A stretch of 64,000 nt of DNA, from positions 1 through 64,000 of the IMG/VR virus record IMGVR_UViG_2724679237_000005; one strand, 5' to 3'. Positions 11,441 to 63,403 of the stretch are shown one piece after another; the first letter of the stretch is position 1, and each line of letters starts with the position of its first letter. The DNA is from a virus. Taxonomy: Duplodnaviria; Heunggongvirae; Uroviricota; Caudoviricetes. The notes beneath the pieces are model-generated. The model searched no databases, was not told the origin of the DNA, and saw only the letters and a program-made list of their open reading frames with translations. Position numbers and translations under genes: made by a program.

Positions 11441-11752
11441 TCAGGCTATTGCCATCACTGATGCTCTCTGAATTTCTTGCTGGGCCACGCGGTTAACTTC
11501 CATCAAAGCCAGTTCGAGCTGATGTTCCGGCCACATTCTTTGAAATGCCACCCAGCCTTTTCCACGCTGGCGACGAACATTCATTACATAACGAGTAAAG
11601 GTGTTTTTATCGAAAGACACCGCTGTTTCACGGAACAGACGAATAGAGGTTCCATTGGCAACGATGTCCAGCAAAGTTAATTGAGCAACCAGTGCAGGCT
11701 TCTCTTTTCTCTTCTGGTCTTTGTCCAGACCAAGAACCAATGATTTTTTCAT
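11441..11752 (-). CDS. hypothetical protein
   Basis: ATG at 11752 (MKKSLVLGLD) follows SD ggag. 103 aa. Confidence 0.55.
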   Translation of the reverse strand: MKKSLVLGLDKDQKRKEKPALVAQLTLLDIVANGTSIRLFRETAVSFDKNTFTRYVMNVRRQRGKGWVAFQRMWPEHQLELALMEVNRVAQQEIQRASVMAIA

Positions 11753-29329: not shown

Positions 29330-29388
29330 AGCCTGCTTCTGTATATTAATAATTAATATGTAGTTATTTATATATACAGAAGCAGGCT
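29330..29388 (-). terminator. long-stem terminator after the Dam-like gene
   Basis: agcctgcttctgtatat / atatacagaagcaggct is a 17-bp perfect stem with a 25-nt all-AT loop. GTTTTGTATC follows on the minus strand. Confidence 0.7.
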
Positions 29389-55285: not shown

Positions 55286-57648
55286 CAAATATCGAAGCTC
55301 GTTATGTCGGCATTTATTGCCATTGCTTCGGCATAAGTGCGACGCTCACCATCAGCACAAAGTAGGCGTGCTGCTTTATGGATTTTTCTCGTAGAACCGT
55401 CATCCAGTGACACTGTCACCCAGCCTTCCTCCGCTCGCTTAATGAAGTCGCCGCCAATGGATTTCATTTTCTCCATATCTTTTTTCCCGATCGCTTTCCT
55501 GACCGAGTCTGCTTCCGCCATTGAGAACCCCGCCAAGATTCGCGTAGCAGCCATGATCTGTTCCTGATAAATCAGAACACCGTTTGTGTCGCGAGAGATG
55601 TCGTCCAGCATAGGGTGTAAGGAATGTGGAGCCATGAAGCCTTTGGCCACGGAGACATAGTCGTCCAACATGCCGGATTGAATCGGGCCTGGTCGGAAGA
55701 GTGCGGTCGTGGCGACAACGGTCTTGAAGCTCATTGGCTCGATGCCACCGCCCAGATCTTTAAGCAACTTACGCATGGGGCCGGACTCCAGCTGGAATAC
55801 GCCCTGCGTGTACCCTGCAGCGAACCCATCCAGAACCTTGCGATCGTCCAGTGGGATAGCGTCGAGATTGATATCTTCACCTGTGTTCTCTTTTATGTAG
55901 CGTTTTGCACTATCGAGCAAATCGAGAGTTGCCAGGCCAAGCACGTCCAGCTTAATTAGGCCCATAGCCTCGCAGTAACGCTTGTCAAATGCGATACAAC
56001 GCGCGTCACCACGTCGTTCAACCGGTGTACGTTCTGTCAGAGGAACACCTGCTACGATCATCCCTGCCGCATGTCTACCAAAGCCACGCATAAGGCTTTG
56101 TAACTTGCAGGCTGCATTGAATGCATCAGGATATTTTGTTGCGTATTTGTCGAGACTTGCCAGTTGTTCGCGCAGTTCTTCCAATGGAAGGCTATCATCC
56201 TCAGCGTTCTTCAGTTCTTTTGATACCGCCATATCTGCGGACTCCACACCATAAATACGAGCGGTGTCACGTAGTGCAGAGGCTGCGCCCAGGTAGGTGA
56301 AGTTCGGAATGCCTGCAACGTAATCTTCGCCGTAGCGTTCATTCAGATACTCGATCACCTCATGGCGACGTGCCTGGCTGAAGTCCAAATCCGCATCTGG
56401 CAAGTCGAGACGCTCAGGGTTGATGAAACGCTCAAACAGAAGACCGTGACGGATTGGGTCGACGTTGGTTATGCCTATGCACCACGCCACCAGAGAACCG
56501 GCAGAGGAACCACGACCAGGCCCAACGGGAATGCCAGTTTCACGACTATGATTCATCAGATCGCGCACCATCAGGAAGTAACCACAGAATCCCAGGCGAG
56601 TCAGCGTGTCCATTTCGTACTTTAGCCGCTCAACATAAACCCTGTTCTCAGAAGCAGGTGGTGTGTATCCAAACTCTTTTGTGGTAAGACGTTTACGCAG
56701 CCCTGCAACAGCCAGTTTCATCAGCGTTGCAGGTTCGTCGTCTGCCATCTTGGGCAGTGCTGGTGGCAATTCATGCCAGCGCCATGTGCAGGAATCGATA
56801 ATGGTATCCTGCGTTGTTGAGGCCATTGCAGCTGTTACAGGCACATCCATGCGAACGGAGAAGGCTTTAAGCGCCTCAAGGAGATGGCGGCGACCATTGA
56901 CGGCGTTATCTCGCTGGTGGGGGATACGCAGACGATGCGGCTGGTCGATTTTGATGTTGTTCGTAACCATGTGCGCAATGTCTTTAATGTCTGCATCGTC
57001 GATCGATTCGTAATAAGCGGGATAGAACGCCACTGGCTCTATTTTCAATGCGCTGGCGACTTTCATCGCCCGGACGTTAATCTGGTCGTAGAATGGGGTA
57101 GGGTGCGGATAAACCACACTATAGAAGTTGTCTTTTCCACCCGCTGTAATCAGTGTGCTTATGATTTTTGCAAAATCGTTGCGTTGGAACACGCTACCGA
57201 TGTCGGAAGTAAGCAGGATGATGTTGCCTTTGGCATATGTAGAAACCAACTGTTCGAGCGAGAGACGCGGTACAAAGTAGAACTGTTCTCGTGTGTTGGC
57301 CGCCGTCATTAGTTCGCAGATGTCGCGATATCCTTGCTCATTTTTAATTAGAGCGGTAAACGAGTAGTTACGTCCCCGCTCTAATGATTCCATACATCTC
57401 ATAGATTCTTTAGCAAGTTTAGCCCGGTGCTCGTATGTGGGATCATCAACAATGTTTAGTTTCACACCACAAATAACCGCCATGTCGTCACCAGCGGCAC
57501 GTTGTAGTGGAATAACGCTCGCAATATTCATGCTATCTGCTGAAATTACAGCGGTGTAGCCAGCTTCTCTGGCAATCTTCACCGCGTTTTCTGCTTTTAG
57601 AGCCGACTCCCCAAGTGAGAAGTCAGTTCGAACCATCAGTGCCTTCAT
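55285..57648 (-). CDS. dnaE: DNA polymerase III alpha, N-terminal fragment (PHP, palm, thumb, part of fingers)
   Basis: 787 aa. GSSAGSLVAWCIGITNVDP and the catalytic LPDADLDF are present. DnaE homology ends at FIKRAEEG and is followed by a 45-aa unrelated tail. Confidence 0.85.
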   Translation of the reverse strand: MKALMVRTDFSLGESALKAENAVKIAREAGYTAVISADSMNIASVIPLQRAAGDDMAVICGVKLNIVDDPTYEHRAKLAKESMRCMESLERGRNYSFTALIKNEQGYRDICELMTAANTREQFYFVPRLSLEQLVSTYAKGNIILLTSDIGSVFQRNDFAKIISTLITAGGKDNFYSVVYPHPTPFYDQINVRAMKVASALKIEPVAFYPAYYESIDDADIKDIAHMVTNNIKIDQPHRLRIPHQRDNAVNGRRHLLEALKAFSVRMDVPVTAAMASTTQDTIIDSCTWRWHELPPALPKMADDEPATLMKLAVAGLRKRLTTKEFGYTPPASENRVYVERLKYEMDTLTRLGFCGYFLMVRDLMNHSRETGIPVGPGRGSSAGSLVAWCIGITNVDPIRHGLLFERFINPERLDLPDADLDFSQARRHEVIEYLNERYGEDYVAGIPNFTYLGAASALRDTARIYGVESADMAVSKELKNAEDDSLPLEELREQLASLDKYATKYPDAFNAACKLQSLMRGFGRHAAGMIVAGVPLTERTPVERRGDARCIAFDKRYCEAMGLIKLDVLGLATLDLLDSAKRYIKENTGEDINLDAIPLDDRKVLDGFAAGYTQGVFQLESGPMRKLLKDLGGGIEPMSFKTVVATTALFRPGPIQSGMLDDYVSVAKGFMAPHSLHPMLDDISRDTNGVLIYQEQIMAATRILAGFSMAEADSVRKAIGKKDMEKMKSIGGDFIKRAEEGWVTVSLDDGSTRKIHKAARLLCADGERRTYAEAMAINADITSFDI

Positions 57649-59159: not shown

Positions 59160-61268
59160 TCACTTTAAAATGATACGAGATAGTTCAGTAACTACAGATG
59201 AACCAAGACTATCAACGCTCGTTACCAGGGCATGATTTGAGTAAAATCTCTCCGGTGCGTCAGTCATGATGCCAATTGCCATCAAATCAATGTCAGTCTG
59301 CGTTTCAATTTGTTTCGCAACCGAACGCAAATGAGCGTCAAAACCTCTCCCAACAGCCCACGGCGCGCCATCACTCAGAACAAGCATGATCTTCCTGTCC
59401 TCCATGCGACCGGAAAATAACGATGCAAGGCTGGCTATGCTTTCACCATCCACGTTATTAAGAAGTGGGAATGTGTAGCCTACGCACCCCATACGTGAGC
59501 GAACTTCGCGAGAATTTACCTTTTCATTCCAATTTTTGATGATAGGTAGCATTAAAGATTCAAAGCGAGAGAACTCATACTTGACAGCCTTAAGTTCTCC
59601 TGCCGCCATATGACTACCAAATGTAGTGAAGCCGGTGATAATGTTGGGAACATTTATTCGATCAAGGGCATCGGCGATGGTATATGCACTTGCAAGAGCC
59701 AATTGTATCGTTATACCACTCATTGAACCTGATAAATCAATCACTTGTTGAACACAGGCGTTAACGGCTTTAGATTCTTCTTTTTTACGAAACACGCGAT
59801 CATCATTCATTGCTAATCTGTAGATACTAGAACCATGAATGCGCCCCCGACGCTGGCCCGGTATAAACTGAACTCTGTTTCTGCTTGCTATTGCTCGCTC
59901 TAGGTCTTTTGCCAGCGTCGACGAAACACCTGACGAAAGATGCTTTTCAATATATTTGTCGAAGAGCTGGTTGCCTTCAGGAACGATGCGATAGCGGCTG
60001 ATTGGATATCCTCCCAAATCAATATCGGAGAATGTTTTAATAAGCCGTTTGATATGGGCTTCTGCCTGATCAATCGAGCCGATGAAGTCGTATGAGCGAT
60101 TGTATGGCCTGTATTCGCTTTTCGAGCTTTCTGTTAACTCGCTTTTAATCGTTTCGGATAGAGCATCTTCTGTCATGCCTCCGACTTCATCTTCTATGCT
60201 ATCCAGCTCCTCTAAAGCCTCTTCCAGACTCATTTTTGACGGAGTTGGAATATCTGAAGAGCCGTCTTCTGTCGTTTTTCTTTTTTCGTGGTCAGCGGTT
60301 AATGATTCTGACGCCGCGTTATCAGAAGCATCAGAATCTGATACCTCTTCATCATTTTCTGTATCATCGAATATTGTTTCTGATGATTCAGAATTATCTG
60401 AATCATCACTGTCGTTATTATCATGTTTGTGCTTACTGTGTGATTCTGGTTTGATAGATTTGTGATTATCTAACGCTGAGGGTGTCTCATAATCTTCGTT
60501 ATCTTCATTGTTTTCTCCAGAGGCATCCGTCTGGTCAGCGTCTGAAGGATCGGAAGTTTTTCCCGGAGCTGACTCCTTACCTTTGCTTTCACTTTCAGTG
60601 TCTTTGAGGATCTTAGCTATGGTCGCAGCCACCTTTACACAATCCTCGGTGCAAGACATGTTACGCACAGCCACATCGATACCATGTTCTTTTAATAATG
60701 AAATTGGTTTCTCAATGACAGGCCAGTATTCATCCATGAAATCTACGAACGGTGCTTGGCCATCCCAGGCTCTTACAACCGGACAGAGAAAGAAGTTTAG
60801 AAAAAGCGCGCGCTGATCTTTGCCACAATAAGCAATAGCCTCTGAAGCCTTTGGTTTAAAGACTTTTTCGATTATAAGGCGCTGAGTTGCCATCAGATTA
60901 CGTCTTGTTCCGTTAAAGACCTGCCCCATTTTTCGCTCGATGAACACGTCTTCTAAGGCATTCCATAGCGACCAGGAAGGAACGCGTCCTTTTTCTCTCA
61001 TTTTGTTGGACACACGAATATCGGTAAACAAAATGTGAGCAACCTCATGATCGAGAAATCCGCGCACAGCATTCATCAATGCCGGTGTTGCGTTATCCGG
61101 GATTGATGGGATGTTTACGAGAATTGGCTCTCCATCATCGTTATAGCGTACATAAGCGTCGTCCCCTCGTTCTGCAACAGGGATGTTTTTACCTGAAAGG
61201 AGAGCGACAACTCGTTTTACACTGTCACGGAAGTCCTGAACCTCTTTGATGGAACGTTTTTTAGACAT
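59160..61268 (-). CDS. VWA-domain protein (CobT-like)
   Basis: 702 aa. A central Asp/Ser/Glu-rich low-complexity region and a C-terminal VWA domain with MIDAS DLSGSMSG. Confidence 0.7.
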   Translation of the reverse strand: MSKKRSIKEVQDFRDSVKRVVALLSGKNIPVAERGDDAYVRYNDDGEPILVNIPSIPDNATPALMNAVRGFLDHEVAHILFTDIRVSNKMREKGRVPSWSLWNALEDVFIERKMGQVFNGTRRNLMATQRLIIEKVFKPKASEAIAYCGKDQRALFLNFFLCPVVRAWDGQAPFVDFMDEYWPVIEKPISLLKEHGIDVAVRNMSCTEDCVKVAATIAKILKDTESESKGKESAPGKTSDPSDADQTDASGENNEDNEDYETPSALDNHKSIKPESHSKHKHDNNDSDDSDNSESSETIFDDTENDEEVSDSDASDNAASESLTADHEKRKTTEDGSSDIPTPSKMSLEEALEELDSIEDEVGGMTEDALSETIKSELTESSKSEYRPYNRSYDFIGSIDQAEAHIKRLIKTFSDIDLGGYPISRYRIVPEGNQLFDKYIEKHLSSGVSSTLAKDLERAIASRNRVQFIPGQRRGRIHGSSIYRLAMNDDRVFRKKEESKAVNACVQQVIDLSGSMSGITIQLALASAYTIADALDRINVPNIITGFTTFGSHMAAGELKAVKYEFSRFESLMLPIIKNWNEKVNSREVRSRMGCVGYTFPLLNNVDGESIASLASLFSGRMEDRKIMLVLSDGAPWAVGRGFDAHLRSVAKQIETQTDIDLMAIGIMTDAPERFYSNHALVTSVDSLGSSVVTELSRIILK

Positions 61269-61284
61269 GGCTAATCCTTTGTTA

Positions 61285-61318
61285 TGAAAACAAATTATTT
61301 ACTAGTGTGTTTAATGTA
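61285..61318 (-). promoter_or_regulatory. A-type promoter/leader motif (degenerate)
   Basis: gaaaacaaattatttactagtgtgtttaatgtag. Confidence 0.35.
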
Positions 61319-61366
61319 GCACTGCGCGAACAGGGAACTAAGCCATTCGCGCAGGGAGAAGAGGGG

Positions 61367-61579
61367 TTAACAGATTCTGACGGCTAAAGACCCGGAGCCG
61401 GTATTGAGAAGCGTGAAGCGTTTGTTGTTAAGTTCGAATATAAAGCCAGTTGTGTCATTCACACCAACCTGAATCTGCTCATTCGGTAGATCGGTGAGGA
61501 TGTCAGCTACACACTCATCAGCTAATTTCTGTACGTGTCCGATCTCAAGAGCGATTAGGCTGGAAATAGTGGTTTTCAT
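61367..61579 (-). CDS. hypothetical small protein, divergent from the XRE gene
   Basis: 70-aa ORF. Confidence 0.45.
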   Translation of the reverse strand: MKTTISSLIALEIGHVQKLADECVADILTDLPNEQIQVGVNDTTGFIFELNNKRFTLLNTGSGSLAVRIC

Positions 61580-61782
61580 TCAATCAATCCATTCTAACTT
61601 ATACTATGGTAAGGAATACTACTAAAATTTGTATCAATACTGAATACATCTATATCAGATGCAAGTTAATTTTCTTACCTATTTTGGGCTGGTTTTTCTC
61701 CATGCATGGACCTTTGCTCGGTCTTACAAGTGCCTGCCGAAAAAAATGATAATAGCTTTACAACCCTAATCTTTGATGTAAT

Positions 61783-61802
61783 ATCGGTAAGCACTTACCA
61801 GA
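61783..61802. promoter_or_regulatory. B-type operator immediately upstream of the XRE repressor gene
   Basis: atcggtaagcacttaccaga. A further half-site, cttacctat, lies at 61673-61683. Confidence 0.5.
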
Positions 61803-61830
61803 GAGAATTAAACGCGCAAAGGTTGTAATA

Positions 61831-62217
61831 ATGTCTGACAACAAGATTGAATTTATAGAAAGTCGCTATGCTGCTTTTATCGCAGGGCTGATTGAATCCT
61901 CACCTATGAGTCAGGCCCAAATAGCCAGACTTATTGGTTATAAAAATGCCAACAACCTTTCTTTAATTAAAAGTGGCAAAATTCCTTTGCCTATCGATAA
62001 GGTTCGTCCGCTGGCGCTGGCGCTGGGTATTGAGCCAAGTCGTCTTATGATGATGGTGCTGGAAGAACGCCAACCTGAACTCGCAGCATTTTTATACAAA
62101 GAAGGCACCGCTCCTCTTAACGAGGACGAAAAACAGGTTCTTGCTGCATATAACGAGCGATTCGGTAAAGAGAAAGGCGCATCACAAAAGGTTGTTGAGG
62201 CCATAAAGTCTCTATGA
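61831..62217 (+). CDS. XRE/Cro-CI-family HTH regulator
   Basis: 128 aa. HTH segment MSQAQIARLIGYKNANNLSLIKSGK. Confidence 0.75.
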   Translation: MSDNKIEFIESRYAAFIAGLIESSPMSQAQIARLIGYKNANNLSLIKSGKIPLPIDKVRPLALALGIEPSRLMMMVLEERQPELAAFLYKEGTAPLNEDEKQVLAAYNERFGKEKGASQKVVEAIKSL

Positions 62218-63315
62218 AAAATTTACACGAATAAGCTCTGTTGATAGACGATCTCCCTTGAATTTGTGGTCAATTTCGTCTAAATCCGGTTGCTCTACGA
62301 TTGATGCGATGTACGTCGAGAAACTTTCTAAGGCGTCTCGCATCTCGTCCATATAATCGTGCCGGTCGTAGACCCGATCTATCCCCTCAAGACTGTGGTT
62401 CATGATTTTGCGTGATACCTCCTGGCTTATGCCTAATGCTGGGAAGTAACTACGCGCAGTACGGCGCAAATCTCGGGGTGTAAATGGCTCAAGCTCCATC
62501 AGTTCTGGTCGTTCCAGAATACGACGTAATGCCTGGGCTATTGCCACTTTAGACATAGGAAGGTCTTTCCCGATTTTTTTATTCGAAGGCACGAGCCACT
62601 GGCTATCTTTACCGTATTCGAACAACTCTTCAATGCATGTGCGCATTAATGTGCTTAAAGGCAGCGAATGCTCACGTGCTGACTTGTTTCTTTTGCCTTG
62701 ATTCCAAACCCCACGCTTAAGATTGAACTCACTTTTTTTAGCCCGCAGTACTTCGTCAGGTCGTCTTGCTGATACAAGACACAGCCTGGCCGCCCATTTT
62801 GTACCAGCGCACACATTGAAGTAGTCCCATATATTCCAGAACACCCATACCTCTGCGTCGGTCAGCTTCCGCTCGCGAGGTGTGGGCTTTGCGCCACCGG
62901 CAACTTTGTTTAGTGACATATCGTTTAACGGTGACACGTCTATCATTCCCTGGAAGGCGCACCAGCTAAGGAACTGCTTCATCAGAGAGAAAACGCGGCG
63001 GCCCATAACAATTTTGCCATCCAGTATTAGTGGGTTGACCAGTTGGTTCACCATGAACCTATTAATGTCACTTACTTTTACATCGGCAATGTGCGGCAAA
63101 ACATGTATCAAAATACAATGAACAGCGATCTCTGGCCGACGTCTTGTTATCAGCAGAGATAAGCGAGTGAATAACATGAATGCGTCCGAGAATCTCATGT
63201 CATTGCTGACCTGGGAGATCATAACGGCCTGCATTTGAGATGCTCTTTCGAGATACTCAATCGCCTCTTTTGAGGTGTTCTCCGCAGCGCGTGCTCTGTC
63301 AAAGCTATTTTTCAT
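62212..63315 (-). CDS. tyrosine site-specific recombinase
   Basis: 367 aa. Arg (ARRPDEV), LPL, TPRDLRRTARS and HSLEGIDRVYDRHDY cover the R-H-R-Y catalytic layout. Confidence 0.85.
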   Translation of the reverse strand: MKNSFDRARAAENTSKEAIEYLERASQMQAVMISQVSNDMRFSDAFMLFTRLSLLITRRRPEIAVHCILIHVLPHIADVKVSDINRFMVNQLVNPLILDGKIVMGRRVFSLMKQFLSWCAFQGMIDVSPLNDMSLNKVAGGAKPTPRERKLTDAEVWVFWNIWDYFNVCAGTKWAARLCLVSARRPDEVLRAKKSEFNLKRGVWNQGKRNKSAREHSLPLSTLMRTCIEELFEYGKDSQWLVPSNKKIGKDLPMSKVAIAQALRRILERPELMELEPFTPRDLRRTARSYFPALGISQEVSRKIMNHSLEGIDRVYDRHDYMDEMRDALESFSTYIASIVEQPDLDEIDHKFKGDRLSTELIRVNFS

Positions 63316-63341
63316 ATGACAATCACCGAGTTACGCCGATG

Positions 63342-63361
63342 TACTGTATAAGTAAACAGTA
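63342..63361. promoter_or_regulatory. LexA (SOS) box
   Basis: tactgtataagtaaacagta matches 17/20 positions of TACTGTATATATATACAGTA, with perfect CTGT-N8-ACAG spacing. Confidence 0.7.
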
Positions 63362-63389
63362 TATTAGGCATAGATTCTTATAGGATCAA
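63361..63389 (-). promoter_or_regulatory. sigma70-type promoter of the recombinase gene
   Basis: The minus strand reads TTGATC-17 nt-TAATAT. The LexA box starts at the last base of the -10 hexamer. Confidence 0.6.
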
Positions 63390-63403
63390 GAGTAAAAGTA
63401 ACT

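Follow-up and report, generated by a model that had tools for sequence, protein, structure and literature searches.

When LexA, the repressor of the host response to DNA damage (SOS), has what looks like a binding site in front of a recombinase gene of a phage-plasmid, is the site genuine, and which function of the element would it couple to DNA damage? The question is raised by a 64,000-nt stretch of viral DNA (positions 1 to 64,000 of IMG/VR record IMGVR_UViG_2724679237_000005; hereafter, the window), in which a note made from the sequence alone (the original prediction) had placed a LexA box on the promoter of a tyrosine recombinase gene, int. The window is part of a phage-plasmid of ~110 kb of the SSU5/pHCM2/pSLy3 (SSU5/pHCM2/pMT1) type that shares 98-99% identity with many plasmids of E. 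coli and E. albertii, among them the complete relative pG749_2, and 96-98% with phage Cyrano (pLF82 of E. coli LF82), with relatives of 73-79% identity in Klebsiella, Enterobacter, Salmonella and Yersinia. The regulation of the SSU5/pHCM2/pMT1 family, which is common and medically relevant, is essentially uncharacterised. The reading that we favour, with a probability of about 0.72, is that the 20-mer is a genuine LexA operator repressing a σ-70 promoter of int and that the recombinase is Cre/lox-like, serving multimer resolution or cyclisation, and not a chromosomal integrase; the recombinase is probably switched on by DNA damage.

The predicted operator (Table 1) abuts the predicted -10 hexamer and covers the predicted transcription start. 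It agrees with the consensus TACTGTATATATATACAGTA in 17 of its 20 bases, CTGT-N8-ACAG being perfect, and with up to three mismatches to the consensus allowed it stands alone in the window, while none of 100 shuffled sequences contained such a site. As a graded measure we used a heterology-index (HI) matrix, rebuilt from 26 E. coli operators and approximate; these operators are attributed to Lewis et al. in 1994 and to Fernandez de Henestrosa et al. in 2000, and the former reportedly put the HI limit for operators at about 12.6. On this approximate matrix the operator has an HI of 3.7, sulA one of 3.8 and recA one of 6.0, suggesting a strength comparable to that of sulA and better than that of recA. 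The analytic probability of an HI of 3.66 or less is 8e-9 per position, corresponding to 0.001 expected sites per 64 kb on both strands. Because the next-best site reaches only 10.6, the window has a single SOS box. The original prediction was thus correct in calling this the only box in the window (no other site has an HI below 10.5), and its count of matches and its placement of the box 27-46 nt upstream of the int ATG (63315..63313, the first in-frame start after a stop) were borne out on direct reading. The CTGT-N8-ACAG pattern occurs once more, at 11623, with a GC-rich spacer and no HI signal, and we treated this copy as chance.

To follow the operator through the family, we compared the region upstream of int homologs from 20 lineages. 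Both hexamers and CTGT-N8-ACAG are kept in 15 of the 16 lineages whose recombinase is at least 58% identical to that of the window, representing ten genera, with Nissabacter as the exception. Among the lineages that keep the box are several types from Escherichia, Klebsiella pJN2-26, Kluyvera, Y. pestis pMT1, S. Typhi pHCM2, Enterobacter, Cronobacter, Citrobacter and Serratia. The kept pattern consists of a -35 hexamer TTGAT(C) or TTGACG, a spacer of 17 nt (16 in one lineage) and a -10 hexamer, of the form TAA(T/C)A(T/C) in 14 of 15 aligned lineages, abutting ACTGT-N8-ACAG; the eight inner bases of the box, the promoter spacer and the 5' untranslated region all drift. The Citrobacter box, TACTGGTTATTCATCCAGTA, is the symmetric CTGG..CCAG variant that is also present in the ruvAB and cho operators, and Buttiauxella shows a joint decay of both hexamers and the box next to an intact int open reading frame (ORF). 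It could be argued that the resemblance to a LexA site is fortuitous or vestigial and that the box regulates nothing, given that the motif's AT-rich centre can be mimicked by AT-rich promoter DNA and that some lineages are box-less. We give this explanation hardly any credence in view of the 0.001 sites expected per window, the retention of CTGT and ACAG across ten genera against a drifting interior, the joint decay of box and promoter in Buttiauxella and an expression pattern that is SOS-like (see below).

Uniqueness of the box holds for the window alone: the idea that it is the sole LexA box of the whole element was rejected for the family, as pG749_2 has a second strong one, TACTGTATATGCATACAGTA (L021 15631-15650), in front of an intact UmuD'-like S24 gene. 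This box is lost from the window, in which the S24 gene (UmuD'/HumD-like) is a disrupted remnant without a box that adjoins an inserted gene for a 1211-aa adhesin/invasin-like protein with immunoglobulin-like (Ig) repeats (17811-18108 and 18258-21893 for the two together). Host-like housekeeping genes lie beside the S24 locus, namely apbC in the window (16670-17770, plus strand) and metG in the relative (pG749_2 L021 11896-15187). We also considered the S24 protein as a cleavable repressor and rejected it: it has 129 aa, starts like the pre-cleaved forms UmuD'/HumD and has no helix-turn-helix (HTH) domain. A repeated motif, TTCTGTATATATA(A/T)ATAA, resembles one half of a LexA box and is found at several positions between genes of the element (window 29362-29381, minus strand; pG749_2 L019 4509, 37002 and 37029); because its HI is 10.8-12, it is unlikely to be a LexA site, and it may be a phage promoter or operator motif. 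Finally, Nissabacter, which lacks the promoter box, has a fairly good LexA-like site, CACTGTACAAATACTCAGTA (HI 6.4; L010 3477-3496), towards the 3' end of int, close to where int overlaps the HTH gene described below.

The layout of the promoter is as originally described, TTGATC-17-TAATAT (63389..63361) followed directly by the box, and we regard a moderate int promoter as plausible on these predicted elements, no other candidate promoter for int being plausible. That int has a promoter of its own is implied by the terminator-like hairpin after the upstream gene grxA, which is predicted to shield the int promoter from transcription arriving from upstream; in the Cyrano RNA-seq data, grxA does not share the induction of int and stays flat from B6 to MB6 (conditions defined below). 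The terminator scanner missed this hairpin, probably, at a guess, because extension of the stem consumed the T-run. The coordinates of all these features are collected in Table 1.

Table 1 Predicted features of the int locus (window coordinates)
Feature	Coordinates	Strand	Description
LexA (SOS) operator, predicted	63342..63361	-	TACTGTTTACTTATACAGTA on the gene strand; TACTGTATAAGTAAACAGTA read on the plus strand
-35 hexamer, predicted	63384..63389	-	TTGATC (4/6), with a GATC (Dam) site inside; spacer of 17 nt to the -10
-10 hexamer, predicted	63361..63366	-	TAATAT (4/6); final T is the first operator base
Likely ribosome-binding site	63323..63327	-	GGTGA, 7 nt before the ATG; AGTGA or GGTGA in most relatives
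Tyrosine recombinase gene (int)	62212..63315	-	367 aa; core-binding and catalytic domains, no arm-binding domain
Candidate core site	63414..63446	.	Perfect 13-7-13 palindrome, AATGATTCCATAC-CTACTAT-GTATGGAATCATT; 24 nt upstream of the -35
Intrinsic-terminator-like hairpin after grxA	63496..63520	-	CGGCTC-ACAG-GAGCCG, then TTTTTATT
Convergent HTH regulator gene	61831..62217	+	128 aa; 'putative repressor' in the Cyrano annotation; 3' end overlaps the int 3' end by 6 nt

Public RNA-seq data are available for Cyrano and its host (GSE154648, tabulated as log2(fpkm+5) in the LF82 paper, PMC9928086) from stationary LB cultures (BLB), from bacteria alone at 1 h and 6 h (B1 and B6, as inferred from the labels) and from macrophages at 1 h and 6 h post-infection (MB1 and MB6), macrophages being an SOS-inducing environment according to the authors of that paper. 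In the order BLB, B1, B6, MB1 and MB6, Cyrano int (CYRAN_44) has values of 5.6, 7.9, 6.1, 8.9 and 10.3, next to 7.2, 6.1, 7.3, 8.4 and 9.85 for sulA, 7.3, 7.5, 5.8, 9.1 and 10.2 for dinI, and 5.4, 4.8, 4.1, 8.2 and 8.9 for umuD. Between B6 and MB6, int thus rises ~20-fold; its later value in macrophages (6 h) exceeds the earlier one (1 h), a course shared by sulA, dinI and umuDC. The UmuD'-like S24 gene of the element, which has a LexA box in relatives, rises by +3.1 in Cyrano. Together, the strong operator, its footprint and the correlated induction of Cyrano int support, in silico, the claim of direct LexA control of the recombinase promoter.

What the recombinase would do is indicated by its domains, its site and its location. 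Residues 172-320 match the Phage_integrase family (PF00589) with 39.9 bits against a cutoff of 27.1, there is a weak match to the central domain PF22022, and the catalytic residues R185, K211, R284, H307 and the nucleophile Y316 show little or no variation among 20 homologs. The AlphaFold2 (AF2) model (pLDDT 85) has a two-domain C-clamp fold, for which Foldseek ranks λ Int best (1z1b/1z19, residues 75-356, E 4e-7 to 1e-6), followed by Xer, Tn1549 Int and IntI, with Cre 36th or lower (E 0.01-0.07). A sequence search of the PDB returned no match to the recombinase, Cre included, and membership of the Cre family by homology is not supported by either the sequence or the model. The arm-binding domain PF13356, present in the nearest outgroup, has no match in the clade, in which an unrelated helical N-terminus of ~55 aa takes its place. 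This outgroup consists of P4-type (CP4-57/SlpA-like) integrases, which have PF22022 and the catalytic domain in common with the clade at 25-34% identity, as well as the motifs ...DLRRT... and ...NH-x8-Y-x-R/H-x-Y; unlike the clade, which lacks PF13356 and is plasmid-only in E. coli, they have PF13356 and integrate into chromosomes.

The candidate site of action is a perfect palindrome located between the grxA hairpin and the int promoter (z = -8.2 versus shuffles), which is present just upstream of int in 17 of 17 lineages analysed. The changes in its two arms mirror each other and follow the recombinase lineage: in the Morganellaceae elements, T·A is replaced by C·G at position 7 and by G·C at position 12. 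The asymmetric 7-bp centre varies freely, with 12 distinct 7-mers. Such an anatomy is that of a simple tyrosine-recombinase core site. We rejected the palindrome as an Xer/dif-type site, its arms being unlike dif, and as a terminator, no T-run following in register. In Serratia, an insertion of 10 nt (L012 2394-2403), corresponding to one helical turn, moves the -35 away from the palindrome.

In 5,426 complete E. coli genomes, the int locus is present in 252 (4.6%), and all 262 copies are plasmid-borne, none being chromosomal. Similarly, the four places viewed for homolog P0006 (two ~106-kb records and two short contigs) all have a phage-plasmid gene context, and published surveys describe these elements as exclusively extrachromosomal (PMC9600943). 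Because of the plasmid-borne location of all 262 copies and the published extrachromosomal state, we favour a Cre/lox-like role over chromosomal integration. A conventional phage integrase, with chromosomal insertion and SOS-triggered excision, is what the match to phrog_1 (integrase), the annotation as 'site-specific integrase', the λ-Int-like fold and the P4-type outgroup might lead one to expect, and we consider it very improbable: besides the 0 of 262 chromosomal copies and the literature, the enzyme lacks an arm-binding domain, the symmetric-arm palindrome is intact beside the gene, and no excisionase-like gene is annotated beside int in the records examined, although no search was aimed at one. 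Of the roles that the original prediction had left side by side (excision, integration or dimer resolution), dimer resolution, or cyclisation, is therefore favoured, while chromosomal integration and excision are disfavoured.

The comparison with phage P1 gives this role a concrete form. As in the Cre/loxP system, a tyrosine recombinase of a phage-plasmid would act near its own gene on one inverted-repeat site with 13-bp arms and a short asymmetric spacer, there are no arm-type sites, and the expected roles by analogy would be multimer resolution and cyclisation; unlike in Cre/loxP, there is no detectable sequence relationship, the fold match is weak and the spacer has 7 bp instead of 8. We know of no report of LexA control of cre. 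The P1 cre promoters are reportedly affected by Dam methylation, a finding attributed to Sternberg et al. in 1986, and this sensitivity may be set beside the GATC in the -35 of int. Most lineages retain this GATC, and an N6-adenine methyltransferase is encoded by the element itself. In P1, Cre functions in multimer resolution and cyclisation (PMC7969092), and the same source lists the tyrosine recombinase as a persistent gene of the SSU5 supergroup, without a demonstrated function.

The palindrome is also a boundary. On the int side gene order is shared, and in all relatives synteny ends exactly at the palindrome; among complete E. coli plasmids whose flanks differ, homology sets in at 63446-63448, which is the outer edge of an arm. 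The region directly upstream (window 63447-64000; L001 5650-8800; L002 5230-7000) is a variable cargo region that holds grxA in the window, the very highly expressed moron CYRAN_43 (723 times background) in Cyrano and genes for a YafO toxin or Gp38-like genes in others. The antibiotic-resistance gene (ARG) insertions of SSU5-like elements all lie at a single published locus, from phoH to the ligase gene, which corresponds to this cargo region beside the palindrome. Recombinase and site could, accordingly, form a platform for cargo exchange with an integron-like logic that swaps or captures the variable block starting at the palindrome, and exact single-arm copies in the same orientation within the variable region of relatives would also suit such a platform. 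We regard it as decidedly unlikely. The insertion sequence (IS) and transposon genes that are reported beside the ARGs at this locus suffice as an explanation; the arm copies carry ATCTCAT or ATCACAT, not the core CTACTAT, and are a misfit for simple recombination products; other single-arm copies lie inside conserved genes; the central 7-mers differ among lineages, and recombination between elements would therefore be blocked; and there are no cassette-like repeated units.

The dispersed single-arm copies lie kilobases away from the palindrome. Exact or with one mismatch, and followed by ATC(T/A)C, they are found in the window at 57383-57402 and 62698-62709 (both plus strand), in pG749_2 at L020 5817 and 6817 (minus strand), equivalent to Cyrano L001 7781 and 8793 (minus strand), and in Citrobacter at L028 6607 and 12151 (minus strand). 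One copy lies within a dnaE-like gene, where E. coli and Citrobacter share 17 nt inside a stretch of 78% identity, one lies within int (codons V-W-N-Q), and two lie in the upstream variable region past the end of the window. Upstream copies point toward int and downstream copies back, and some coincide with ORF starts of the form MIPYI... We rejected the copies as recombination scars on the grounds that their 7-mers differ from the core spacer and that two copies lie inside conserved genes; as a class, they could be accessory sites, scars or coincidence.

The gene downstream of int raises a further possibility, which concerns the output of the promoter and is compatible with a real LexA operator. 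Because of the 6-nt overlap with the convergent HTH gene, int transcripts must enter that gene antisense; this tail-to-tail arrangement is kept in all relatives, and we found no convincing terminator after int (a weak hairpin at 61991-61975 is in a count no better than in shuffles and has a fold z of -1.0) and no known RNA families in 61200-64000. Further downstream, on the same strand as int, lie a 70-aa ORF and a cobT-cobS early operon. The LexA-controlled int promoter could then be the SOS sensor of the lysis-lysogeny switch: transcription would cross the HTH repressor gene antisense toward the early operon and either lower the repressor by transcriptional interference or antisense RNA or bypass a repressed early promoter, with no repressor cleavage and no antirepressor protein. 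The published 39-fold induction of Cyrano by ciprofloxacin and induction of SSU5-like elements by mitomycin C document that the family is SOS-inducible, while the HTH protein, the repressor candidate, has no S24 self-cleavage domain that we could find, and no LexA box precedes any antirepressor-like gene (the boxes precede int in the window, and int and the UmuD'-like gene in pG749_2), in contrast to P1 and N15, which place LexA on the antirepressor. Moreover, CYRAN_46, the 70-aa ORF downstream on the int strand (4.3, 7.0, 6.0, 8.65 and 10.8, in the order given above), tracks int over all five RNA-seq conditions. However, int rises ~20-fold in macrophages, yet there are no Cyrano virions above background there, and int transcription is therefore not sufficient for lytic growth; the HTH mRNA rises (+2.4 log2) in macrophages instead of falling; CYRAN_46 is at least as abundant as int, which suggests a promoter of its own and not attenuated read-through; the box-less lineages keep the same convergent geometry; and an untranslated read-through RNA would be exposed to Rho termination. 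On balance, we consider a switch function possible, if unlikely.

The 250-nt divergent region between the HTH gene on the plus strand and the 70-aa ORF/cobT operon on the minus strand (61580-61830) has the look of a cI/cro-type switch. It contains a candidate HTH promoter, TTTACA-16-TAATAT (61757-61784), and a near-palindrome, GGTAAG-TG-CTTACC (61783-61796), that starts at the last base of this promoter. Together with further GGTAAG/CTTACC motifs at ~61607-61616 and 61675-61680, it is a possible operator.

Returning to the favoured reading of a LexA-controlled Cre/lox-like recombinase, the following sequence of events is proposed. In an undamaged cell, LexA bound over the -10 and +1 would keep the recombinase low. 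DNA damage would activate RecA, leading to self-cleavage of LexA and transcription of int, and the recombinase would most likely act on the 13-7-13 palindrome upstream of its own promoter. Plasmid multimers arise through RecA-dependent recombination, which is more active during SOS; a simple-site system would resolve them and possibly circularise incoming phage DNA. Gating by LexA would restrict the resolvase to the times at which it is needed, and its low level in between would limit spurious recombination. This SOS logic is the one proposed for integron integrases (PMC3108266).

The resemblance to integrons extends to the promoter and ends at the enzyme and its site. LexA control of PintI in class 1 integrons and the Vibrio cholerae superintegron is said to have been described by Guerin et al. 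in 2009. In integron integrase promoters, a LexA box over the -10 was validated with gel mobility shifts (EMSA) as well as RT-PCR (Cambray et al. 2011, PMC3108266). As in these systems, the locus studied here has a σ-70 promoter of a tyrosine recombinase with a gammaproteobacterial LexA box at the -10 and a primary site beside the gene (all predicted here), and LexA control has been lost in some lineages. Unlike in integrons, the recombinase is not IntI: the IntI structure 2a3v ranks 22nd among the fold matches at ~15% identity, there is no match to an IntI-specific family, and the best NCBIfam hit is a generic integrase domain with 33.7 bits against a cutoff of 434. In addition, the site is a duplex 13-7-13 palindrome and not attI/attC, the neighbours are ordinary phage and plasmid genes (no cassette array was seen near int, although no attC search was made), and the replicon is a phage-plasmid in which the likely role is maintenance and not gene capture.

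A second comparison concerns where other phages receive the SOS signal. In coliphage 186, tum is a LexA-controlled antirepressor. In P1, a LexA site overlaps the promoter of coi, an antirepressor gene (PMC4713147), and in N15 a LexA box is published to control the antirepressor antC. As for P1 coi and N15 antC, host LexA and not a self-cleaving phage repressor would provide the direct input of DNA damage; unlike in those systems, the box precedes a 367-aa recombinase gene and not that of a small antirepressor, and the contrast with antirepressor control that had been drawn from the sequence is apt.

Several points weigh against the favoured reading. First, the int promoter hexamers match at 8 of 12 positions, with an optimal spacer of 17 nt, and fall below the threshold of a consensus scanner; of the earlier description of a near-consensus promoter with an abutting box, the layout stands and the near-consensus does not. 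Second, the first His of the HxxR motif is Arg (R281) in the clade and His in most of the outgroup; substitutions of this His occur in active tyrosine recombinases. Third, other Cyrano genes (hicAB, kacAT, CYRAN_46, 60, 61 and some structural genes) rise as much as int in the RNA-seq data, parA rises by ~2.3 log2, hinting at a general or copy-number component, int is also up in B1, where host SOS genes are not, and macrophages impose many stresses. Because of the rise of parA and the other genes and of int in B1, the support from RNA-seq is correlative. Fourth, the Cre-like role is inferred from anatomy, and inducing a resolvase just as lytic growth begins could work against the packaging of concatemers. 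Finally, no LexA box was found upstream of int in four more distant lineages, Nissabacter (L010), Photorhabdus (L014), Xenorhabdus (L016) and Providencia (L018), which keep the recombinase and the palindrome, and LexA control is therefore not essential to the system. The distance from palindrome to ATG is 42-64 nt in these four lineages versus 94-106 nt elsewhere, and their int promoter may overlap the recombinase site, allowing autoregulation in place of LexA control. Judged from these alignments, the operator is under selection in a large clade, yet an add-on to an older module.

The literature searched, which did not cover subscription journals, yielded no previous report that a LexA box accompanies this recombinase in phage-plasmids, whether SSU5, pHCM2, pMT1 or others. 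The predicted wiring of LexA onto a recombinase is of a known type and, as far as the literature searched goes, new for this widespread family, whose int locus is present in about 790 PLSDB plasmids, including S. Typhi pHCM2, Y. pestis pMT1 and resistance-carrying phage-plasmids of Klebsiella and Enterobacter. It provides a first concrete, testable link between the host SOS response, as elicited by quinolones, trimethoprim or macrophages, and a function of these plasmids, perhaps their stability, their induction or recombination at a hot spot for cargo. The compact pair of a recombinase and a 33-bp site, with naturally diverged variants of arms and spacer, could also serve as a source of orthogonal Cre/lox-like tools. 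If the operator merely tunes a resolvase, it would be a solid and unsurprising addition to the SOS regulon of mobile elements; its interest rests on the prevalence of the family and on how these phage-plasmids sense DNA damage.

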